Notes under the pieces: generated by a model
Databases searched by the model: none
What the model saw: only the letters and a program-made list of their open reading frames with translations
What the model was told of the DNA's origin: nothing
Shown here: one piece after another, positions 2,648 to 48,153 of the stretch
Numbering within the stretch: position 1 is the stretch's first letter
Layout of the letters: the number at the start of each line of letters is the position of its first letter
Program-made: the position numbers and the translations under genes
Source of the DNA: Thermomicrobia bacterium
GTDB taxonomy: Bacteria > Chloroflexota > Chloroflexia > Thermomicrobiales > UBA6265
Assembly: GCA_044464585.1 (NCBI GenBank)
Contig: JBIQLF010000007.1
Location: forward strand, 10,304 to 58,456
Length of the DNA stretch: 48,153 bases
Direction: 5' to 3'

Positions 2648-3871
2648 CTATCGCACGATCGACTCTTCCGGCGATTCGCCGTATTGGAATTCGTCGACCC
2701 ACGGTTTGCCCTCGGCGAACCGCGAGGCACGGAATGGGGTCATGTCCATCAGCTGCGGTCCGCCGTCGGCAATCCATTCCGCCAGGATCTGGCCGATGGC
2801 CGGTGACGTTTTGAAGGATGTGCCACTGTCGCCGGTCATGACGAACAGTCCATCGAATTGGCCGAGCTTGTCGATGATCGGGTGTCCGTCCGGACTTTGC
2901 ATATAGACCCCAGTCCAGCCGCCGCGCATGGTCGAATGGGCGAAGACCGGAAATCGACGAGCCAATGTGGCGCGGGCCGTGTCGATATACCACTGTTCGA
3001 CCGATTCCTCGAAATCGGCTGGATCGGAACCATCGCGGTCACCGATGGTGACGCCGATGAGGGTGGTGGTCGGTGTGACGGGCGCTATCCAGGCGCTGTT
3101 GAGCGAGTCGATCACCACCCGATGCCGGCGCGTGGCCGGCATCTCGAAGGGATGACGGAAGAGGACCACCCGCGAACGGCGCGGAAATGTGCCCAGATCG
3201 ATGCCCAGCGGGATCAGGAGCGTATTTGCATACGCTCCAGCGGCCACCAGCACGGTGGGGGTCGAGATCGAACCCGCTGGCGTCTTGACGCCGGTGACCG
3301 TTCCATCTTCGGTGAGGATCCGAGTGACCTCGACGCCGGTGTGAATGGATGCACCCCGTTTGGTCGCGGCGTGCGCGAACCCGAATGCGGTCGCATTCGA
3401 ATCGGCAAACCCGGAATGTGGTTCGTAGGCCGCGAGACTGATGTCGTCGGTGCGGATGAACGGTTCGATGAAGGCGATTTCGTCCGGTGTGACTAGCATG
3501 GTGTCGCTGCCCAGATCGCGCTGCATGGCGACATTCTTGCGGAGCGCGTCTTCGTCGTCCGGGGCAACCAGGCGCAGGAACCCGACTTGTTCCAAACCCG
3601 GATCGCCCGCGCCGACCTGTTCGGCCCAACTCCGGAAGATCCGCATACTGGCAAGCGCAAGTTTGGTTTCCTGGGGATTGGTGTAGTGGGCGCGCACCAG
3701 CGCGCCCGATTTGCCGGTTGCGCCGGCCCCGATATGACTGCGTTCCAGCACCACCGGGCGAATCCCTTTGCGGGTAAGCTGGTACGCGGCGGAGAGTCCA
3801 TTGACCCCCGCGCCGATGATGACGACTTCGGCGGTGGCAGGGAATGCGGCCGGATTGGCATCGAACGTCAT
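2648..3871 (-). CDS. FAD-dependent oxidoreductase, DAO / sarcosine oxidase beta-subunit-like
   Basis: Rossmann VVIIGAGVNG..., GATGKSGALVR, SPDGHPII, GDSGTSFKTSPAIG. Confidence 0.9.
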   Translation of the reverse strand: MTFDANPAAFPATAEVVIIGAGVNGLSAAYQLTRKGIRPVVLERSHIGAGATGKSGALVRAHYTNPQETKLALASMRIFRSWAEQVGAGDPGLEQVGFLRLVAPDDEDALRKNVAMQRDLGSDTMLVTPDEIAFIEPFIRTDDISLAAYEPHSGFADSNATAFGFAHAATKRGASIHTGVEVTRILTEDGTVTGVKTPAGSISTPTVLVAAGAYANTLLIPLGIDLGTFPRRSRVVLFRHPFEMPATRRHRVVIDSLNSAWIAPVTPTTTLIGVTIGDRDGSDPADFEESVEQWYIDTARATLARRFPVFAHSTMRGGWTGVYMQSPDGHPIIDKLGQFDGLFVMTGDSGTSFKTSPAIGQILAEWIADGGPQLMDMTPFRASRFAEGKPWVDEFQYGESPEESIVR

Positions 3872-3936
3872 GGTGTCACCTCCGAGATGGATACTCCGCT
3901 TTCGAATTCGATTCTCGACACAGGATACGTGCGCCC

Positions 3937-4272
3937 ATGCGTGGTCACCAACAGATTTCCAACGACAAGGTCGATGAGCTGATCGTGTTTCTGACGCCGT
4001 ATGTGCGCTCCTTGCTGCAGCGCGTCGATGCCGATGAATTCACCACCACCCAGTTCATCGAGGTGATGCACCAGGACCCCGTGACCGAGCAGGCGTACCA
4101 GCAGGCGCTGACCGACTGGGGTGAAACATCGCACCAGGCAAAGATGGTGATTCATGGGCAGGTGATTCCGGCGGCCATGCGGGCATCGGACATGGTGGAA
4201 TGGATCGGGTTCGCGCATGGGGAGGATGATCCCTATGCGGTGCCGGCCTGGTGGAAATTGAAAGCGGAATAA
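3937..4272 (+). CDS. Hypothetical protein (~111 aa)
   Basis: GC3-rich codon usage and protein-like composition (MRGHQQISNDKVDELIVFL...PAWWKLKAE). Start chosen at ATG 3937 to avoid overlap with the divergent gene. Confidence 0.75.
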   Translation: MRGHQQISNDKVDELIVFLTPYVRSLLQRVDADEFTTTQFIEVMHQDPVTEQAYQQALTDWGETSHQAKMVIHGQVIPAAMRASDMVEWIGFAHGEDDPYAVPAWWKLKAE

Positions 4273-4664
4273 CATGCTTTCGGGAGGGGCGCCGGTGGAT
4301 GCGGCAGCGCCGCTGGTAAAGCGGTGCGCATCCCGGATGCTGGCCAGGAGGCGGCCTGCTGGCGGCCGTTCGCACCGCAACATCGCACGCGGAGCGGTGA
4401 TGCCGGCCAGCGCCACCGCCGGGCATCGGGCTTTTTGACCGGCTAGAACGCCTGCATTCATTCCCGCCTAGGTTTGCCGGACAGTGCCCGTATATACTTC
4501 CATTTCTGAAAGATGACGTCTTCCGAACTGAAGCCGGCATCGCAGAACGAACCCGGCGCCCGGTTCGACCGTTTGCCGGTGCGAAGTGCTCGATCCTGGC
4601 TGGCCCGGGCTGGGCATTTCGCTCTTTCTCCCCCATTCGAAGACACACCAGATGGAATCATTCG

Positions 4665-42471: not shown

Positions 42472-42548
42472 GGCGCGTTCGTCTAGCGGCCCAGGACACC
42501 GCCCTCTCAAGGCGGAGATCACGGGTTCGAATCCCGTACGCGCTACCA
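42472..42548 (+). tRNA. tRNA-Glu (anticodon CTC)
   Basis: Acceptor stem GGCGCGT/ACGCGCT, anticodon arm CCGCC-CTCTCAA-GGCGG, T-loop GGTTCGAATCC, encoded CCA. Confidence 0.97.
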
Positions 42549-42643: not shown

Positions 42644-43516
42644 ATGACGAAGATCTCCCGTAATGCCGAGCTCCTGGGATACCCAGCGGATGCCCGTTTG
42701 CTGATCGTCAACGCCGACGATTTCGGGATGTGCCATTCGATCAATGTCGCCACAGTCGAGGCGATGCGAAGCGGCATCGTGACGACCACCAGCCTGATGG
42801 CGTGTTGTCCGTGGGCCTGGGAGGCCATGAGCATATTGAAGGACGATTCATCTCTTTCGTTCGGTGTCCATCTCACCCTCGTCAACGAGATGCCGGGCTA
42901 TCGGTGGGGACCGGTGGCTTCGAGGGATACGGTTGCCTCGTTGGTGAATCCGGCTGGTTTCTTTGGCGCGCACGCCGAGATTCCGGCACTCTATGCGAAC
43001 GCGGTACTGGACGAAGTCGAAATCGAGTTTCGGGCGCAGATCGAGCGCGTGCTCGATTTCGGACTCGCGCCGACTCACCTCGATTGGCATTGCGTGCTCG
43101 ATGGAGGGCGTCCCGATATTCTCGATCTGACCCTCCGACTCTGCGATGAATTCGGGCTGGCGATGCGGGTGAATGGTGACGCGACGCGTGTGCGCCTCCT
43201 GGCCCAGGGAAAGCCCGCCAACGACTTCCCGATCGTGGACAGCTACAGTCTCCCGGTCGAGGGGAAATCCGGTATCTGGGTCCAGATGCTGCGCGAGCTG
43301 CCGGTGGGGTTGAGTCAATGGGCCGTGCATGTGAGCACTGGCGACGCCGAGGCGCAGGCGATGGAACCAGGCGGGTGGCGGGTGCGCAAGACCGATTTCG
43401 ACTTCTTTTGCTCGCCGGAAGCCCGTGCCGTGGTCGAATCCGAAGGAATCATTCTCATCGACTATCGGGAGATTCAGCGGCTCTGGGGATGCGCCGGTGA
43501 TGCCGGGCGTGCATAA
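42644..43516 (+). CDS. ChbG/YdjC/HpnK family carbohydrate deacetylase
   Basis: LIVNADDFG, TTTSLM, GVHLTL, E.RAQIE, PTHLDWH. Confidence 0.92.
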   Translation: MTKISRNAELLGYPADARLLIVNADDFGMCHSINVATVEAMRSGIVTTTSLMACCPWAWEAMSILKDDSSLSFGVHLTLVNEMPGYRWGPVASRDTVASLVNPAGFFGAHAEIPALYANAVLDEVEIEFRAQIERVLDFGLAPTHLDWHCVLDGGRPDILDLTLRLCDEFGLAMRVNGDATRVRLLAQGKPANDFPIVDSYSLPVEGKSGIWVQMLRELPVGLSQWAVHVSTGDAEAQAMEPGGWRVRKTDFDFFCSPEARAVVESEGIILIDYREIQRLWGCAGDAGRA

Positions 43517-43569
43517 TGCGCCGATTCGGGACCGAATGGCGGTTCCAGCACTATTCGAGGGGAAATAAG

Positions 43570-44136
43570 ATGGAGAGGATTCGCTGGTTATTCGCGTCTC
43601 TGATGATTGCATCCGCGATGATGACCGTGGGCGCCGGGGCGGTGGCCGCGCAGACGGGTACACCGATTACGGTGCCAACGGCCACCGCGAATGGTTGTGA
43701 CAAGGTCCCGGCGTATGCCGAGATGCGACAGAAGATCATGGATGAATTGATTGCCAATATCGGAATGGTCTTTCCGGGGGTGGCGACGCCTATTACCGAG
43801 CATGGCGATCAACTGGCCGTCGCAATGATGATTATGACGCCGGAACAATTGGGTCGACTGGCCCAACTCTATGACGACACGAGCAAGAAGATCGGAGAGC
43901 TTGCGGTTCCGGAGATTGCGTTCTTCTACAACCAGCAAGTCGAAGAACTCTACCGGGTGTCGGCCCTGGCTTTTGCCGAAGCGAAAACCTCCGATCTCGC
44001 GACAGCCGGTCAGCGCTTCGGGGCGCAATTGGGCGCGCTCGGCGCGGCTATCGGTGAGTACGGGGCGTCGGCCACCGCGGTTTGCCCGGCATTCGCGGAG
44101 GTCGTACAGGTCGATCAGACCCGGGTCGGTATGTAA
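43570..44136 (+). CDS. Secreted helical hypothetical protein with two Cys
   Basis: Signal peptide MERIRW...AVAA-Q, Thr/Pro linker, amphipathic helices, host-like codon usage. Confidence 0.75.
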   Translation: MERIRWLFASLMIASAMMTVGAGAVAAQTGTPITVPTATANGCDKVPAYAEMRQKIMDELIANIGMVFPGVATPITEHGDQLAVAMMIMTPEQLGRLAQLYDDTSKKIGELAVPEIAFFYNQQVEELYRVSALAFAEAKTSDLATAGQRFGAQLGALGAAIGEYGASATAVCPAFAEVVQVDQTRVGM

Positions 44137-44203: not shown

Positions 44204-44542
44204 TCAGAAGTTGAAGGGGCTGCCGCTGTTCGGCGCACCGTAGCGATTGTTGCCCTCGGTGCCTTTCCAGACGATCAGGTAGATCGCGAAGAAGATATTC
44301 ACGATCGGGACAAAACCCAGCAGATAGAGCCACCCGGTCTTGTCGAGATCGTGCAGGCGCTTGATGCCCATGAAGATACCGGCGATCCCGGCAATGATCG
44401 AAAGAATTGCCTGAACGGTTGTGCCCCGATCTCCGAGAATATAGCCAATGATGCCGAAGATGATGGCGATACCGACGATCCAGATGATCCAGTCCTTACG
44501 CCCGATCCGCCCGTCGGCGGTGAAAATCTTCCCAAAATCCAT
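44204..44542 (-). CDS. DUF805 (YhaH-like) membrane protein
   Basis: F...GRIGRKDW, KRLHDLDKTGW, G..G.NRYGAP. Confidence 0.92.
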   Translation of the reverse strand: MDFGKIFTADGRIGRKDWIIWIVGIAIIFGIIGYILGDRGTTVQAILSIIAGIAGIFMGIKRLHDLDKTGWLYLLGFVPIVNIFFAIYLIVWKGTEGNNRYGAPNSGSPFNF

Positions 44543-44645
44543 GCGAAGGTCCCCTCTCTCCCGAATTTCTCCCGATGTGACGTTGCAGAAACCGCCGGAG
44601 AACCGTTGCGGCGCCGGGTACGGGAAACCAGCGGCACGGTTCGGT

Positions 44646-44830
44646 CTAGTCTGTCAGCTTCGGCACGCCTCGGCTTTCTAGCGCTTCCCGCATATCGCAC
44701 ATTGCCTTCGGTCCCACACCGTGAAGCGCAAAGAACTGGAGGGAACTGGCGCTGGCAATCGATTCGAGCGAACGACAGCCATGCGCCGACTTGCCGATCT
44801 CCCATGGCAACGGAGCCACGGCGGTTCGAG
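44646..44830 (-). pseudogene. Probable decayed small helix-hairpin-helix (RNAP alpha-CTD-like) DNA-binding protein gene
   Basis: Frame reads PLPWEIGKSA-HGCRSLESIA...FALHGVGPKAMCDMREALESRG, resembling LP.IG.PA.RAL...G...L..L...LHG.GPKA...L.EAL but missing the RAL segment. No clear RBS or start. Confidence 0.45.
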
Positions 44831-44870
44831 CGTTCACCCTTGGGCCGTCTTTCGATTCGTAAAATAACAT

Positions 44871-45059
44871 AGTCCCGACGAACCTCTGAACCTCTGCCAC
44901 CGCCCCCTGGTATCGAACCGAAACGCGCCCCGCAACGCTCCCGGTTCTCCGCCCTGGATTTTGCCATTTCGCCAGTTGCGATTCGGGCCGGTTTTGACGC
45001 CGGTGAAAGGCCATATGTCGAAACGTGGTGGCCGCCTCAGGTGCTCCTCGGGACCATGT
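44871..45059 (-). ncRNA. Candidate ~185-nt rod-shaped non-coding RNA (6S RNA-like)
   Basis: Ends pair (GGUCCCGA.GAGC / GUUC.UCGGGACU), with nested helices CUGA/UCAG, GCCACC/GGUGGC, AACCG/CGGUU and UCGCAAC/GUUGCGG. Dedicated promoter upstream and U-rich tail (UGUUAUUUU) downstream. Confidence 0.5.
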
Positions 45060-45065
45060 ACGTAC

Positions 45066-45094
45066 ACGATACGGAATCGTGGGCCGATTGTCAA
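45066..45094 (-). promoter_or_regulatory. sigma70 promoter pointing into the ncRNA candidate
   Basis: TTGACA (45094-45089)-N17-TATCGT (45071-45066); expected +1 near 45059. Confidence 0.65.
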
Positions 45095-45232
45095 GGGGGC
45101 CGTGACGTGAATTTCATAATCTCCGCGTAGGTACGCGGGTTTATTGACGTAACGGCCTAGTCTCTTCGTTCGAGAAGGGAACCGATCGATATCGATCCGG
45201 TGGCAAGAGCACTCGAGCGCTGAGCGCGCAGA

Positions 45233-45877
45233 TCAGGAGATATCGCCGACCGTGGTTTCGACTGTGATGGTGGCGCTGTACTCGGTGGGATAGACGCCGG
45301 CGGGGACGGTTAGGGTGAGCCCGATCGTTTGGGTTGCGCTTCCCGTGCCGCAGCCCGCGGCAACCTCGGCGATCTTCAGATTGCCGCCTCCATCGAATGA
45401 ATGACCTTCGGCACCGGTCGAGGCAATAATGGCGCCCAGCTCCGGGTCCTGGCAACTCTGACCCGACGTATCCAAGTCGATCTCACCGATCGTGGTGAGC
45501 TCGAGATAGCGATCCGGGATTTGGAATTCCACTTGATCGGAACCGGCGAAAGGAGGAACCGGTGAAACTGGCAAGAAACTGGTGGCGGAAACCGAGATAG
45601 CTCCGCTTCCACGCTCGGTTTGGGTGTCGGTATAGGTCAGTTGGAGGTTCAGCGTGACCGGAACATCGTCCAGCGCATCCAGCGACACGGTTCCAAATGT
45701 TGGGTCCGCCGGTTGGCCACCGTCATCGATTGCCTGCAGCAAAACCGAGAACTCGCCGGCATCGCTAAAGATGACCTGCACGTCCTGCGTTGCCGGTCCC
45801 TGAGCGAATACGGTTCCCATGGTGAGCATCAGCACGATCAGGATGCAGACCGGTCCGGAGATGGCGTATCGAAGCAC
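45233..45877 (-). CDS. Secreted WxL-like / pilin-like beta-sandwich protein
   Basis: Signal peptide (VFA-Q), GAGGAG RBS, FQIPDRYL, C-terminal LTLTVPAGVYPTEYSATITVE. Confidence 0.75.
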   Translation of the reverse strand: MLRYAISGPVCILIVLMLTMGTVFAQGPATQDVQVIFSDAGEFSVLLQAIDDGGQPADPTFGTVSLDALDDVPVTLNLQLTYTDTQTERGSGAISVSATSFLPVSPVPPFAGSDQVEFQIPDRYLELTTIGEIDLDTSGQSCQDPELGAIIASTGAEGHSFDGGGNLKIAEVAAGCGTGSATQTIGLTLTVPAGVYPTEYSATITVETTVGDIS

Positions 45878-45919
45878 CGTGGCTCCTCTCGTGGTGTCGG
45901 CGCGTGACCCGGGATGGTC

Positions 45920-47191
45920 TTACGGAATAACGACCGGCTCTCCGAGACTGGTGCTGCTCAGGATGGTGGAAACACCGGTTTGGCGGTCTTTCGCTTGTAC
46001 GCTCAAGGTGAACGCCCACGTTCCGGAAGACCAGCCATCCAACGGGATATACCGGTTCGTCACATTGGTTTCGCCCTGCGGCAGCGACAGGGGCGAAACG
46101 ACGACATAGTTTTCGACCAGCTCGCCGTCGCGGGTCACCTTCAGGCTCAACTCGGCATCCTCGAGTGGATCGCTGGTGTTTTCGAGGGTGGCATCGATCA
46201 GCAGGAATTGTGGCGACTCGGCATCTGGTTTCAGCGTGCCCGTTGCCTCGGTGAAGGAAACCGGGGGCGCGGCCTCGGCGTCGAGCGCGGCCTGGGTGGT
46301 GGTGGTGATGCGCTGGTTTTCGACGATCGCGGTCGCGCCGGTCTCCGGGTCGCGCAGCTCGATGGTGACCTCGTACTCGCCAGCGGGCAGCAAATCGCCG
46401 AATCCGTATTGGATGCGGCCGGTGTGACCAGCATAGAACGAATCATACGCCAGTTCACTAGTCAGGATCGGCTGACCGTCAGCGTTGTTAATGGTCAACC
46501 GCCCTTCGGGGCGCACACGGACATTGCCGCTATTGACGATATCGGCTTCGAGTCCCGACCAGGTTTTATCGATCACCATGTGGACGTTTTCGATGGAGAA
46601 TTCCGGATGTTTCTCTCCGGGAACGGTCAGATAGAACGCAATGGTTTTGCGCAGATTCTGCTTCATGTTAGGCACACCGGGAATAGGGAGTGGCTCCGCT
46701 GTTTCGAAGCAAAGCGCGGTGACATATTCACCCGGTGGAGTGTCGTTTGGTACCGATACGGTGAACGTGCGTTCAATTCCCTTTCCGGGTTCGAGGGTGA
46801 CGATATCGTTCGGAAATTCGAGCCAAGTGGTGGGAGGCATCTTTTCTTCGTCCGGGCCACCGGTTTCAAATCCGCCATTGAGCGCGGTGCGGACATCGAC
46901 CGCGAAAACGCGTCCAGTGAAATCGGCCTCACCAGTATTGGCCAGTACGACGGTATATCTCTTGTCGGTGCCTGCTTTCTGACTGACATCGAAAAAGGTC
47001 GAAGGACCACTGACCTTGGGGTAGATTCCGAATGACGGCAACGGAGCAGAGGCAATACTGCCGGTCGCGGGGGATGCGTTTGCCTCTGGGGTGGCTTCCT
47101 GAATTGCCAAGGTTGGCATCCTGCTTGGCATCAGGAGTAATGCCAGTAACAGTATCCCTGTGCTAGAAATATAGATTCGTCTTTTCCGCAC
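45920..47191 (-). CDS. Secreted DUF916/DUF3324-like (WxL-interacting, PapD-like Ig fold) protein
   Basis: Signal peptide. SFGIYP..FF...G...V.N...DV.T..NG...W....LEPG...FTV.VP...PGEY, then NSGNV.V.PEG.L.I. No C-terminal TM helix. GTG start 47191 after AGAGGA. Confidence 0.75.
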   Translation of the reverse strand: MRKRRIYISSTGILLLALLLMPSRMPTLAIQEATPEANASPATGSIASAPLPSFGIYPKVSGPSTFFDVSQKAGTDKRYTVVLANTGEADFTGRVFAVDVRTALNGGFETGGPDEEKMPPTTWLEFPNDIVTLEPGKGIERTFTVSVPNDTPPGEYVTALCFETAEPLPIPGVPNMKQNLRKTIAFYLTVPGEKHPEFSIENVHMVIDKTWSGLEADIVNSGNVRVRPEGRLTINNADGQPILTSELAYDSFYAGHTGRIQYGFGDLLPAGEYEVTIELRDPETGATAIVENQRITTTTQAALDAEAAPPVSFTEATGTLKPDAESPQFLLIDATLENTSDPLEDAELSLKVTRDGELVENYVVVSPLSLPQGETNVTNRYIPLDGWSSGTWAFTLSVQAKDRQTGVSTILSSTSLGEPVVIP

Positions 47192-47245
47192 GTTGGTCCG
47201 TCCTCTTTGCGAGCGAAGCAGATCGTTGCAGGATGTTGGTGAGTC

Positions 47246-47301
47246 GAGCCGGCGCGGTTCGAAACTGCCACGCCGGCTCACTGCACGGTCGCGAAGCGAC
47301 C
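47246..47301 (-). other. Two stem-loops after the first WxL-like gene
   Basis: On the minus strand GGUCGC-UUC-GCGACC and GAGCCGGCG...UUCG...GCCGGCUC. Confidence 0.55.
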
Positions 47302-47311
47302 CGGAACTCGG

Positions 47312-48118
47312 CTAGTTGAAGACTTGCTCGACGGTTAGTGTGCCCTCGTATGTGCCAGGGTAGACACCAGCGGGGACCTGTAAAGCAAGTTGGACCGTAT
47401 GAGTAGCCGAAACGAAACCGGAACCCTCATAGATCCAGGCGATCATGTGCGACCCGTTGCCTTCACCAAAGTTGTTGGCTCCACAGACTTCGGGCCAGAG
47501 GACCAATGTGTTGTCGGTGGTAACACGGCATGCAGAGGGGGCTGTCGCTCCGAATGCGCCACCGATATCGCCGACTTTATAGATTGCCTTTCCTGAATCT
47601 GCACTACCGGCAACGCGGGGGGCTCGCCCCGTGCTGCCGTTCCAAATTTGGCCGCTGGACCCCGTGCCGCCCGTGTATTTCACCTGCTGCGGGTTATACA
47701 TTCCGCTGATCGACAAATAGCGGCCGGGGATTTGAAGATTCACGTTCCCTGGAACGATATAGCCTGGAACTGAATCCTTGAACTCCATATATGCGCCGGC
47801 GGAAGTCCCATCTCCCAACTTCAAGTAGATGTTGCTACCGCTACGGTGCAAGGAGACGTCATTACCATATTCGACAACGAACTCGGCCGTACCTGCATTA
47901 ACGAGACCGTTGCCCTCCCCAACCGCATCGACCGGGACGTTGCCAAACTTCGCGCTGCTTCCAGATGCCAGGCCTGCAGACATCTGAATGGTGCTGCTGT
48001 CACTTACGTCGACCGACACTGGCATTGATCCGATATCGTCTGCTGTTGCCGGGCCGATCATCCCGAAACTCAGCATCAGCGCCGAGCCGATTCCCAAAAC
48101 CTTGCGTTTCCAGTTCAT
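47312..48118 (-). CDS. Secreted WxL-like / pilin-like protein (putative major subunit)
   Basis: AAGGAGG RBS, signal peptide MNWKRK...ATA-D, LQIPGRYL, C-terminal LALQVPAGVYPGTYEGTLTVE. Confidence 0.78.
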   Translation of the reverse strand: MNWKRKVLGIGSALMLSFGMIGPATADDIGSMPVSVDVSDSSTIQMSAGLASGSSAKFGNVPVDAVGEGNGLVNAGTAEFVVEYGNDVSLHRSGSNIYLKLGDGTSAGAYMEFKDSVPGYIVPGNVNLQIPGRYLSISGMYNPQQVKYTGGTGSSGQIWNGSTGRAPRVAGSADSGKAIYKVGDIGGAFGATAPSACRVTTDNTLVLWPEVCGANNFGEGNGSHMIAWIYEGSGFVSATHTVQLALQVPAGVYPGTYEGTLTVEQVFN

Positions 48119-48153
48119 CCTTGCCCTCCTTCGAGCATCGACCATGAACGAAT

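Follow-up and report, generated by a model that had tools for sequence, protein, structure and literature searches.

Our analysis of a 48,153-nucleotide stretch of DNA from a Thermomicrobia bacterium (the window) points to three neighbouring genes, A, B and C, which probably encode, in a monoderm, Thermomicrobiales-like host, a strongly diverged usher-less chaperone-pilin system of the WxL/WxLIP (Elr) type. The support comes from the homology and fold of protein B, the relatedness of A and C to each other, as paralogues, and to WxL proteins, the model of the B-A complex and the conserved synteny of the genes. What is new here is the Thermomicrobiales/Chloroflexota host, a chaperone with three domains but no anchor, and subunits without the Trp of the WxL motifs. 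To our knowledge, the surface structures of Thermomicrobiales are almost unstudied.

Gene organization and host

The ORF list places the three genes co-oriented on the minus strand (45233-48118), with secreted, beta-rich products, as an earlier note on this DNA had described them. The features referred to below are, in window positions:

47312-48118, minus strand: gene A, candidate secreted WxL-like pilin, 268 aa
47996..48040, minus strand: candidate N-terminal donor strand of A, residues 1-15 of the mature protein, given the likely signal-peptide cut between ATA and DD
47315..47353, minus strand: C-terminal strand of A, residues 265-277 (...YEGTLTVEQVFN), predicted acceptor edge facing the chaperone strand
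47192..47311, minus strand: A-B spacer, 120 nt, with GC-rich hairpins of 6 bp and about 12 bp
45920-47191, minus strand: gene B, candidate WxLIP-fold chaperone of 423 aa with a signal peptide and three beta domains
46622..47032, minus strand: domain 1 of B, residues 54-190, DUF916/PGBD-like (PF06030 below cut-off; structural alignment)
46637..46663, minus strand: predicted donor strand of B, KQNLRKTIA (residues 177-185), on the second arm of the hairpin in domain 1
46301..46597, minus strand: domain 2 of B, residues 199-297, DUF3324/HBD-like by fold only
45923..46261, minus strand: domain 3 of B, residues 311-423, additional Ig-like domain in the position of the canonical WxLIP membrane helix
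45233-45877, minus strand: gene C, second candidate secreted WxL-like pilin, 214 aa
45758..45802, minus strand: candidate donor strand of C, residues 1-15 of the mature protein, given the likely cut between VFA and QG, with V8, V10 and F12

The ORF of gene A is listed as 47312-48145, but its likely start is the ATG at 48118, which is preceded by AGGAGG (48125-48130) and yields the 268 aa found in several homologues; from this start the contig end lies 35 bp upstream. Gene B, listed as 45920-47281, likely starts at the GTG at 47191 behind AAGAGGA, giving 423 aa, near the size of most homologues (about 406-449 aa), and gene C starts with GTG, with GAGGAG ahead of it. The ribosome-binding site of gene A, put forward earlier as the strongest, exceeds the others by a small difference only, good Shine-Dalgarno sequences being present in all three genes. 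The stem-loops said to follow gene A exist as the two hairpins of the A-B spacer, but this spacer is only mildly more stable than its shuffles (z -1.68, 12 of 200 shuffles equally good), and it received no intrinsic-terminator score. At the same position the A-B spacer of one relative, L041, holds a much stronger hairpin (z -3.90, 0 of 200 shuffles). It is tempting to speculate on a role of these hairpins in differential expression.

The genome, 97.6% complete, contains no match to Omp85 and three to sortases, and the host is therefore probably monoderm; the loci of relatives come from Thermomicrobiales, Chloroflexia and Sphaerobacteraceae, which agrees with the non-Firmicute host anticipated in the earlier note. 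No usher (PF00577) was matched in this genome at E <= 0.01. The locus itself holds no sortase, the three matches lying on contigs C163, C51 and C5 and not on C7, and neither an LPxTG base subunit nor a tip adhesin is in view there. Five ORFs with sorting-signal-like sequences were retrieved by our own pattern scan, two of them reading LPSTG and LPTTG, all on other contigs. The earlier remark that no LPxTG, sortase or usher was in view is thus borne out, and a fibre could be anchored via unlinked genes.

Protein B has a WxLIP fold with an additional domain

The model of B (pLDDT 88.9) consists of three beta domains. Its residues 51-299 superpose on the E. faecium WxLIP structure 9i25_C (236 residues, Z 19.5, rmsd 3.4 A), and on a further E. 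faecium WxLIP structure, 9i1y_B, with Z 18.7; Foldseek likewise retrieved solved WxLIP proteins at E 4e-9 to 9e-9 (TM 0.73-0.78 by target length). The next unrelated structures score Z 12.9 or less, and the classical pilus chaperones CsuC, CfaA and Caf1M score 11.0, 10.7 and 10.6. As modelled, domains 1 and 2 of B are a WxLIP fold. At the sequence level B reaches 22.6 bits (E 1e-4) against PF06030 (WxLIP_PGBD, DUF916), or 25 bits in the genome search, below the cut-off of 27.3 bits, and 27.5 bits against NPCBM_assoc, above the cut-off of 24.4; PF11797 (DUF3324/HBD) gave no match in B at E <= 1. We collected 43 homologues of B; in the Chloroflexota loci scanned, the B homologues are above the PF06030 cut-off in 7 of 13. 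Two residues of the predicted donor strand, Q178 and R181, show at least 90% conservation in a set of 38 sequences.

Domain 3 resembles domain 2 weakly (hhalign 74.8%, E 2.6e-5), and among solved folds it comes nearest to a GH2 Ig-like domain (Z 12.9), followed by the carbohydrate-binding domain of Wzt (Z 10.8). A crude Kyte-Doolittle scan of our own (19-residue window, last 60 residues), on which all membrane-helix calls for B and its relatives are based, detected no hydrophobic membrane helix at the C-terminus of B (largest mean 0.86) and gave at most 1.44 in 37 of 37 homologues (P0017-P0053, among which P0027, with 353 aa, and P0038, with 340 aa, are shorter), as against 2.06-3.98 in the shorter relatives P0055-P0059, L015, L025, L026, L028, L030, L034, L036 and L037. 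Together with the model, the scan sustains the previous description of the middle protein as one with Ig domains, a third beta domain and no C-terminal anchor.

A and C are divergent WxL-like paralogues

A and C align in BLASTP with 27% identity (E 2e-10) and have in common the motifs V.V..SD, FG.V..DA, QIP.RYL and L.L.VPAGVYP..Y..T.TVE, all of which had been quoted in the earlier note; the profiles of their families match at 99.8% in hhalign (E 5e-30, 202 columns). Judged from these sequence comparisons, A and C are paralogues. As had also been noticed, the mature part of each protein contains two Cys (in A, C206 and C221, which all 16 members of its family possess), and both proteins lack the W-x-L motif: the two Trp of the dual Trp-x-Leu motif of the WxL domain are missing in A and C, and C is devoid of any Trp. 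PF13731 (WxL; cut-off 25 bits) found nothing at E <= 1 in A, in C or in the whole genome, the NCBIfam models had no match at E <= 1 in A, B or C, and A belongs to no Pfam or NCBIfam family. The Pfam matches of A and C at E <= 1 were weak ones to Ntox37, Glyco_hydro_123_N_2, PKD and InlK_D3. The 16 homologues of A (44-100% identity; 268-294 aa when full-length) also carry no Pfam domain.

The link to WxL proteins was revealed by the relatives, in which 6 of 15 tested small ORFs adjoining B homologues pass PF13731; in the scanned Chloroflexota loci the passing ORFs number six, in 3 of 13 loci. The eight sequences of the C family aligned with ten WxL-passing Chloroflexota proteins over 154 columns (hhalign 97.7%, E 1.7e-12), the G-W-N-V of the latter falling on G-A-I-S of C, while the A family aligned with the WxL-passing set over only 64 columns at the N-terminus, signal peptide included. 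On these alignments C is homologous to the WxL-passing proteins over the whole domain, and A is tied in through its paralogy with C. The WxL and DUF916 resemblance claimed earlier is hence confirmed by profile for the subunits and by fold for B. Among 1.84 billion representatives C matched 15 clusters at E <= 0.001, several of the lower-ranked matches being proteins of 1216-4188 residues with many matched stretches each.

The monomer model of A is mediocre (pLDDT 71.7), with residues 27-44 below pLDDT 50, and it resembles known structures weakly (Z up to 6.7; Foldseek E >= 3.5e-3); therefore, the proposal of an incomplete fold for A draws on the complex model described below and not on the monomer. 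The candidate N-terminal donor strand of A shows alternating hydrophobics (M6, V8, V10 and V12 of the mature protein) and an Asp at position 14, V43 and V47 of A being at least 90% conserved. By likeness to ElrD of E. faecalis (bioRxiv 10.64898/2026.10.17.759780), this strand may act as donor strand. The BLASTP alignment sets the candidate donor strand of C against it, and the N-terminal strand of C may serve in the same manner. At the other end of A, the C-terminal strand motif is kept in 16 of 16 family members.

B is predicted to complement A by a parallel strand

Complex models of B(46-423) with A(36-277) reached ipSAE 0.88, 0.88 and 0.89, against 0.00 for the best of three controls; of 157 solved complexes 116 attain the mark applied, as do 2 of 215 mismatched pairs, a calibration that is rough here, our own alignments having been used. 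The runs agreed in at least 78% of contacts, with a partner pLDDT of at least 67. The contacts of lowest error join B 177-184 to A 269-276 in parallel register, B 170-185 lies within the interface and domain 3 of B outside it. In the model, strand 177-185 of B thus runs alongside the C-terminal strand of A in the chaperone geometry of ElrE-ElrD, for which a parallel arrangement of chaperone strand and subunit C-terminal strand is reported, and which is described as the primed state seen in pilus systems (bioRxiv 10.64898/2026.10.17.759780). A WxLIP-WxL complex has been solved (9i25); as B matches its sequence marginally (E 0.19), it seems unlikely that the prediction simply reproduces that structure. 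The usher-less donor-strand complementation of a subunit by its chaperone, which the earlier note had envisaged, thereby gains in-silico support for the pair of B and A.

Proposed mechanism and alternative explanations

The following route would account for these data. A and C would leave the cell by Sec, each as an Ig-like WxL-type domain lacking its last strand and bearing a free amphipathic N-terminal strand. B would act as the chaperone, its residues 177-185 filling the groove beside the subunit C-terminal strand in parallel (donor-strand complementation), until the N-terminal strand of one subunit takes the place of the chaperone strand in its neighbour (donor-strand exchange), joining subunits head to tail into a thin surface or matrix fibre. 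Domain 3, perhaps a duplicate of domain 2, may hold B at the envelope by other means. Polymerisation, the identity of the major subunit, the site of fibre anchoring and the role of domain 3 are the presumptive parts of this scheme. A monoderm cell would lose a chaperone that is freely soluble, unless it were somehow retained. More tentatively, the locus could represent the first donor-strand pilus of Chloroflexota, with a chaperone free of a C-terminal helix tether, in which either domain 3 holds B at the wall through glycans or the B-subunit complex is released and a matrix polymer grows outside the cell.

In the older Csc/WxLIP view, A and C would be wall-bound monomers and B, which binds and stabilises them, their permanent scaffold to wall or substrate, with no fibre formed. 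Such a WxLIP role was proposed by Hassan et al. 2023 from a comparable AlphaFold strand insertion (PMC10599100), and it would suit a B+A model that captures binding and not hand-over, a domain 3 resembling carbohydrate-binding beta sandwiches such as that of Wzt, and a locus with no base or tip subunits in view. We nevertheless regard it as rather unlikely, given that the homologous Bacillota system is reported to polymerise, on the evidence of cryo-EM and SDS-stable ladders (bioRxiv 10.64898/2026.10.17.759780), that A and C retain a free, conserved, alternating N-terminal strand, and that a chaperone strand placed in parallel, as here, characterises the primed state of pilus systems.

The resemblance of domain 3 to the GH2 Ig-like and Wzt carbohydrate-binding domains could also speak for a surface complex for carbohydrate capture or degradation, in which the WxL-like proteins and B present glycan-active partners and no adhesive fibre is made. 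This role was first proposed for the csc clusters of Lactobacillus (PMC1534035), and in the Actinomycetota loci L029, L030 and L036 a GH43/Laminin_G_3 protein of 1457-1583 aa and a small ORF precede the WxLIP-like gene. However, no glycoside hydrolase adjoins our locus in the window or occurs in the Chloroflexota loci scanned, and an enzyme-tipped fibre would fit the same observations, so that this explanation, improbable in our judgement, competes with the preferred one on function more than on the mode of assembly. Finally, A and C might form a TasA/TLP-type donor-strand matrix fibre that needs no chaperone, B being an unrelated secreted Ig-domain protein. The top Foldseek rows for A do include TLP-1b, at E 3.5e-3, as well as the TasA fibre (8aur_A, E 1e-2), but these matches are weak (TM 0.28-0.36; Z 5.5 for 8aur_A), the Pfam matches of A and C being likewise weak and to four unrelated families; B, in addition, has the WxLIP fold, a predicted interaction with A and conserved synteny with A and C, which makes such an arrangement very improbable.

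Comparison with known systems

The mechanism proposed for A, B and C in the earlier note is therefore plausible, but it is no longer undescribed. The same mechanism has been demonstrated by experiment for E. faecalis WxL/DUF916 clusters in a preprint of 2026, the first description of an Elr-type system, which reports it as confined to Bacillota (bioRxiv 10.64898/2026.10.17.759780). According to this source, the Elr (WxL) pilus comprises the pilins ElrC and ElrD, the chaperone ElrE (DUF916-DUF3324-TM), the tip ElrA and the LPxTG base ElrB. Our locus resembles it in the small secreted WxL-type subunits flanking a WxLIP-fold protein, the lack of an usher, the monoderm host and the domain-1 hairpin strand predicted parallel to the subunit C-terminal strand. 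It differs in its host (Chloroflexota/Thermomicrobiales instead of Bacillota), in a B protein with a third Ig-like domain and without the C-terminal membrane helix that the preprint gives for 96.7% of Elr-type chaperones, in the failure of A and C, lacking both Trp-x-Leu motifs, to match PF13731 and of B to match PF11797, and in having neither LPxTG base nor sortase in the locus. The donor strand of A (hydrophobics at 6/8/10/12, Asp at 14) also misfits the enterococcal pattern [S/T]8-x-[G/A]10-x-[V/I]12-x-F14. The screen described in the same preprint counts loci with PGBD and HBD both above threshold and a WxL protein within 10 kb; neither B nor A/C would be retrieved by this rule, and PF11797 was found in 0 of 13 Chloroflexota loci (no match at E <= 0.001 in their B homologues), which would explain why such loci were left uncounted there.

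With the Firmicute WxLIP/CscA proteins (E. faecium 9i1y and 9i25) B has the two-domain Ig fold in common (Z 18.7-19.5), whereas its sequence identity to them is about 12-14% and it has the extra domain 3 in place of a membrane helix. One WxLIP gene with two WxL-type genes is also the make-up of Firmicute WxL (csc) clusters, and it is reported as their commonest type (98 of 179 clusters; PMC10599100). A related mechanism has been described in CPR bacteria, where the Pam pilus has PamA/B pilins, reported as exclusive to CPR, and anchored PamC/D chaperones (bioRxiv 10.64898/2026.03.03.709456). Our locus would share with it the make-up of an usher-less donor-strand fibre with PapD-like chaperones in a cell without an outer membrane; by their published description, Pam chaperones have a C-terminal membrane helix, which B lacks. 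In the classical and archaic chaperone-usher pili (Caf1M/Caf1, CsuC/CsuA/B, CfaA/CfaB) a soluble chaperone also complements an incomplete Ig-like subunit, and B, like CsuC, CfaA and Caf1M (Z 10.6-11.0) and unlike ElrE, is not membrane-anchored at its C-terminus. On the other hand, no usher, Omp85 or outer membrane accompanies it here, and B belongs to the WxLIP and not to the PapD_N sequence family, with a third domain added to the two of those chaperones.

Relatives and distribution

The locus and its relatives suggest that the range of WxL chaperone-pilin systems is wider than Bacillota. If this is true, the family would be much older and more widespread, in forms missed by Pfam profiles. 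On the more tentative reading given above, and with the anchored relatives scattered in Chloroflexota, Actinomycetota and CPR, the WxLIP-type usher-less pathway might be an ancient, Terrabacteria-wide pilus machinery and no speciality of Bacillota. The anchorless, three-domain B poses the question of how a monoderm cell keeps a soluble pilus chaperone at its surface, and would offer a natural test of whether usher-less donor-strand exchange needs membrane tethering.

The co-occurrence of the three genes elsewhere, on which the earlier note had made its proposal depend, was encountered in L041, whose A protein is 45% identical, and in L005/L016, all with the order A-B-C; five cases in which A and B homologues lie on contigs of equal length, presumably identical ones, seem to add to this. 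Upstream in relatives lie ORFs of 449-781 aa (7 loci) or 255-274 aa (2 loci) ending in a WxL-like terminal strand, for which tblastn found no counterpart in this genome. A homologue of B is present in 13 of 41 related genomes and, out of 401 genomes sampled from the phylum, in 30, and the 24 loci from named genome records belong to Chloroflexota, Actinomycetota, one Berkelbacteria and one Aminicenantes.

Organisation of the locus

An earlier note on this DNA reported three adjacent genes for secreted proteins, and our analysis confirms that observation; they lie at the end of the contig (C7), of which the window is 10304-58456. The outer genes, A and C, encode WxL-like pilin candidates, and the middle gene, B, encodes a candidate chaperone with the fold of WxLIP, the protein that combines DUF916 (PF06030, WxLIP_PGBD) and DUF3324 (PF11797, WxLIP_HBD). 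The features of the region are as follows.

47312-48118, minus strand: gene A; ATG start with AGGAGG ahead of it; 35 bases of contig remain upstream
45920-47191, minus strand: gene B, 423 aa; GTG start with AAGAGGA ahead of it
45923-46261, minus strand: third domain of B, an extra Ig-like domain in place of the membrane helix
45233-45877, minus strand: gene C; GTG start with GAGGAG ahead of it
44543-45232: spacer of about 690 bp between C and the DUF805 gene, with no convincing ORF
44204-44542, minus strand: DUF805 membrane protein gene (Pfam E 2.4e-19), downstream of C
43516-44136, plus strand: 206-aa secreted protein with no family at a meaningful E-value
42472-42548, plus strand: tRNA-Glu(CTC), on the downstream side of the locus

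The three genes are tightly spaced on a common strand, each product carries a signal-peptide-like N-terminal segment, and the length of B is close to that of most of its homologues (about 406-449 aa). Chance ORFs are ruled out by conserved homologues for each of the three. The stem-loops that the earlier note placed after the first gene correspond to two hairpins in the A-B spacer (shuffle z -1.68). A scan for terminators gave 5 against 3.8 expected, none of them in this spacer. The equivalent spacer of L041, a metagenome contig with the same genes, holds a far stronger hairpin, unlike in sequence (z -3.90; 0 of 200 shuffles as good). Hairpins at this position would fit a first subunit that is expressed more highly. 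Downstream of C, the 690-bp spacer has a 7-bp GC-rich hairpin at 45122-45139, and at 45094-45066 its minus strand carries a promoter-like site.

The middle protein has a WxLIP fold

B stays below the thresholds of the WxLIP sequence profiles: it scores 22.6 bits against the Pfam DUF916 model, under the 27.3-bit cut-off, has no Pfam match to WxLIP_HBD, and its family reaches a single entry among PDB sequences, EfmWxLIP1, at a marginal E of 0.19. The predicted structure (pLDDT 88.9) consists of three beta domains (residues 54-190, 199-297 and 311-422), the first two of which superpose on the solved Enterococcus faecium WxLIP proteins 9i25_C (Z 19.5, rmsd 3.4 Å, 236 residues) and 9i1y_B (Z 18.7). 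Both stand well above every other row of the search, classical pilus chaperones included (CsuC Z 11.0, CfaA 10.7, Caf1M 10.6), and Foldseek against solved structures gave E-values of 4e-9 to 9e-9.

The third domain shows weak similarity to domain 2 (hhalign 74.8%, E 2.6e-5) and, judged from sequence, looks like a tandem duplicate of it. Among solved folds it comes nearest to GH2 Ig-like domains, at Z 12.9, and to the carbohydrate-binding domain of Wzt, at Z 10.8; in the ESM Atlas the best score, 0.90, belongs to an unnamed cluster, with a WxLIP_HBD cluster at 0.86 as a lead only. All homologues that have this domain keep a conserved short terminal strand, often ending ...[IV]-x-[IV]-P. A crude hydropathy scan found no C-terminal hydrophobic helix in B or in any of 37 homologues (P0017-P0053), and the same scan detected such a helix followed by a basic tail in shorter, more distant relatives, among them the one at locus L015. 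The description of the middle protein as DUF916-like, with a third beta domain and no C-terminal anchor, holds. At residues 30-53 of B (47105-47032 region), the hydrophobic N-terminus is joined to domain 1 by some 25 residues rich in Pro, Thr, Ala and Ser, and the homologues share such a linker. If the signal peptide of B were left uncleaved it would act as an N-terminal tether, the inverse of the arrangement in ElrE, the chaperone of the E. faecalis Elr pilus.

The outer proteins are divergent WxL-like paralogues

The proposed paralogy of A and C is borne out by BLASTP (27% identity, E 2e-10), whose alignment displays the motifs quoted for the pair, and by comparison of the two family profiles (hhalign 99.8%, E 5e-30, 202 columns). 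Each of the two families is small. A word-indexed search of 5.8 billion proteins yields 16 members for A at E <= 0.001; for C, a search through the full sequences of 1.84 billion representatives gives 15 clusters at the same threshold, several of the lower-ranked ones being proteins of great length that match in many places. At E <= 1, A and C both lack a match to Pfam WxL (PF13731), a profile search with PF13731 finds nothing anywhere in the genome, and no NCBIfam family is hit by A, B or C. The relationship to WxL proteins emerges when families are compared, as the C family aligns along the entire domain with ten proteins from Chloroflexota that score above the PF13731 cut-off (hhalign 97.7%, E 1.7e-12, 154 columns), the first WxL motif of the latter, G-W-x-V, corresponding to G-A-I-S in C. 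Against the same set the A family aligns over 64 N-terminal columns only, and the link from A to WxL therefore runs through C. Considering this together with the fold of B, we regard the locus as very probably homologous to WxL/WxLIP clusters.

The monomer model of A is of modest quality, with a pLDDT of 71.7 overall and values under 50 for residues 27-44. Its best Foldseek match is TLP-1b (E 3.5e-3), followed by CfaB, TasA, FimA and PapA, and a wider structure search yielded a mixture of cohesins, Ig domains and pilins at a best Z of 6.7. These matches are weak; donor-strand fibre subunits (TLP-1b, CfaB, TasA, FimA, PapA, Csu) recur among them, and the WxL chain of 9i25 is absent from both lists. 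At the level of sequence, the A family has no match in the PDB at E <= 10, and the WxL-passing set none at E <= 1.

Predicted complex of B with A

In a complex modelled from the mature sequences of B (46-423) and A (36-277), each entered as an alignment, a strand of B is predicted to lie beside the C-terminal strand of A. The modelling check proposed for the chaperone/subunit pair came out in its favour, with ipSAE values of 0.88, 0.88 and 0.89; the three controls scored 0.00 at best. Agreement between runs covered 78% of contacts or more, and the pLDDT of the partner was 67 or higher. Of solved complexes, 116 of 157 attain the mark applied, as do 2 of 215 mismatched pairs, a calibration that is rough here as our own alignments were used. 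The best-defined contacts in the model pair B 177-184 (KQNLRKTI) with A 269-276, and Q178 and R181 of the B strand are at least 90% conserved. Since the residue numbers of both strands rise together, the pairing is parallel. The first strands of A (51-65) also enter the predicted interface, and domain 3 of B lies outside it. A comparable complex is already solved (9i25), to which the sequence similarity of B is marginal. The model supports binding of B to A, and its predicted geometry is the chaperone-complemented form described for ElrE and ElrD, an Elr pilin; we consider chaperone-type binding likely.

Relatives, upstream genes and host

B homologues were found in 13 of 41 related genomes, a count that includes the present genome and one genome flagged as unpublished (G036), which adds a single weak match; without the present genome, they occur in 10 of 24 members of the same family. 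Phylum-wide they occur in 30 of 401 sampled genomes, most matches covering domains 1-2 only. Relatives fall in 24 loci whose named records are Thermomicrobiales, Chloroflexia and Sphaerobacteraceae MAGs; weaker matches come from Actinomycetota and from single MAGs of Berkelbacteria and Aminicenantes. By match coordinates or contig position, the first rows of this set are the same contigs as rows of the 41-genome set, all of the same GTDB family as the window. Among 13 Chloroflexota loci scanned, the B homologue passes PF06030 in seven, falls below its cut-off in three and has no match in three, and none matches PF11797. Small upstream ORFs pass PF13731 in three of these loci (two ORFs each) and lie just under its cut-off in four further ones; in an earlier set, 6 of 15 pass.

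The three genes do co-occur elsewhere. L041 repeats the order A-B-C, and L005/L016 reads large ORF, A-like, B, C-like, the latter synteny resting on one genome (G011) that is flagged unpublished. L041 continues with a fourth small secreted WxL-like gene (3765-4340, plus strand), more canonical in carrying a G-W-E-L motif and in matching an ORF of locus L011 that passes the WxL profile (phmmer E 3e-12), for which no counterpart was found in the window's genome.

The last base of the window is also the end of the contig. Larger upstream ORFs in relatives, of 449-781 aa in seven loci and 255-274 aa in two, end in the same WxL-like terminal strand, as "large WxL" tip proteins do. In the present genome, nine upstream ORFs of relatives returned only short repeat-like tblastn matches (contigs C60, C115 and C12). 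The final 200 bases of C7 are found on none of the other contigs, and a metagenome scan retrieved a single locus, with 489 bp only upstream of A.

The genome, 97.6% complete, has no Omp85 or usher match and encodes three sortases (on contigs C163, C51 and C5), which fits a monoderm host. At least two proteins carry LP[ST]TG sorting signals (C24:29483-31501 and C75:13673-15043); these, like the sortases, are unlinked to A-B-C.

Comparison with known surface fibres

The stated lack of usher, sortase and LPxTG in the locus is correct, and it separates the locus from two familiar routes to a pilus. Classical chaperone-usher pili are ruled out by a genome devoid of usher and Omp85 matches, and sortase-polymerised pili by the absence of sortase and LPxTG from the locus. 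Usher-less assembly is described for the Pam pili of CPR bacteria, with anchored PapD-like chaperones (bioRxiv 10.64898/2026.03.03.709456). For WxL clusters, Hassan et al. 2023 proposed that WxLIP is a wall scaffold, and found one WxLIP with two WxL genes to be the most frequent arrangement, in 98 of 179 clusters (PMC10599100). The closest precedent is a preprint of 17 October 2026 (bioRxiv 10.64898/2026.10.17.759780), which shows that the WxL proteins of the E. faecalis elr locus build a pilus by donor-strand exchange, with the DUF916/DUF3324 membrane protein ElrE as a chaperone that places a strand in parallel with the subunit's C-terminal strand. That text calls the system Bacillota-confined (48 of 4,698 genera), plus "a small Actinomycetota satellite", gives a C-terminal helix for 96.7% of chaperones, and states a screen demanding both PF06030 and PF11797 over threshold, a combination that none of the Chloroflexota proteins we scanned displays.

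The mechanism put forward in the earlier note, in which a chaperone would assemble the two subunits without an usher, remains the best-supported reading, but it is of an already known kind according to the Elr preprint rather than undescribed; that the locus makes an actual fibre we judge slightly favoured. In contrast to the Elr pilus of Bacillota, whose chaperone has a C-terminal helix, this locus belongs to Chloroflexota and its chaperone candidate lacks a C-terminal anchor but carries one domain more, the third. New here are the host phylum, this form of candidate chaperone, and subunits too divergent for family profiles. The literature searched, preprint supplements excepted and judged in part by titles and abstract openings, gave nothing on WxL/DUF916 systems in Chloroflexota or Thermomicrobia.

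Among the Actinomycetota relatives (Rathayibacter, Naasia), L029:437-7028, L030:312-6888 and L036:250-6789 have a secreted GH43/Laminin_G_3/aBig_2 protein of 1457-1583 aa followed by a small ORF with no Pfam match; next comes a membrane-helix WxLIP-like protein in L030 and L036 (PF06030 31.3 and 29.6 bits), and the ORF chosen at the corresponding place in L029 has no Pfam match. Such loci may encode a variant of this assembly system that is tipped with an enzyme. WxLIP-like genes just under the PF06030 cut-off also occur in the Berkelbacteria MAG, a CPR member (L034:333-1271, 26.6 bits), and in the Aminicenantes MAG (L035:5713-6555, 23.6 bits), in the latter amid small secreted ORFs and a SdrD_B/SpaA-domain protein.
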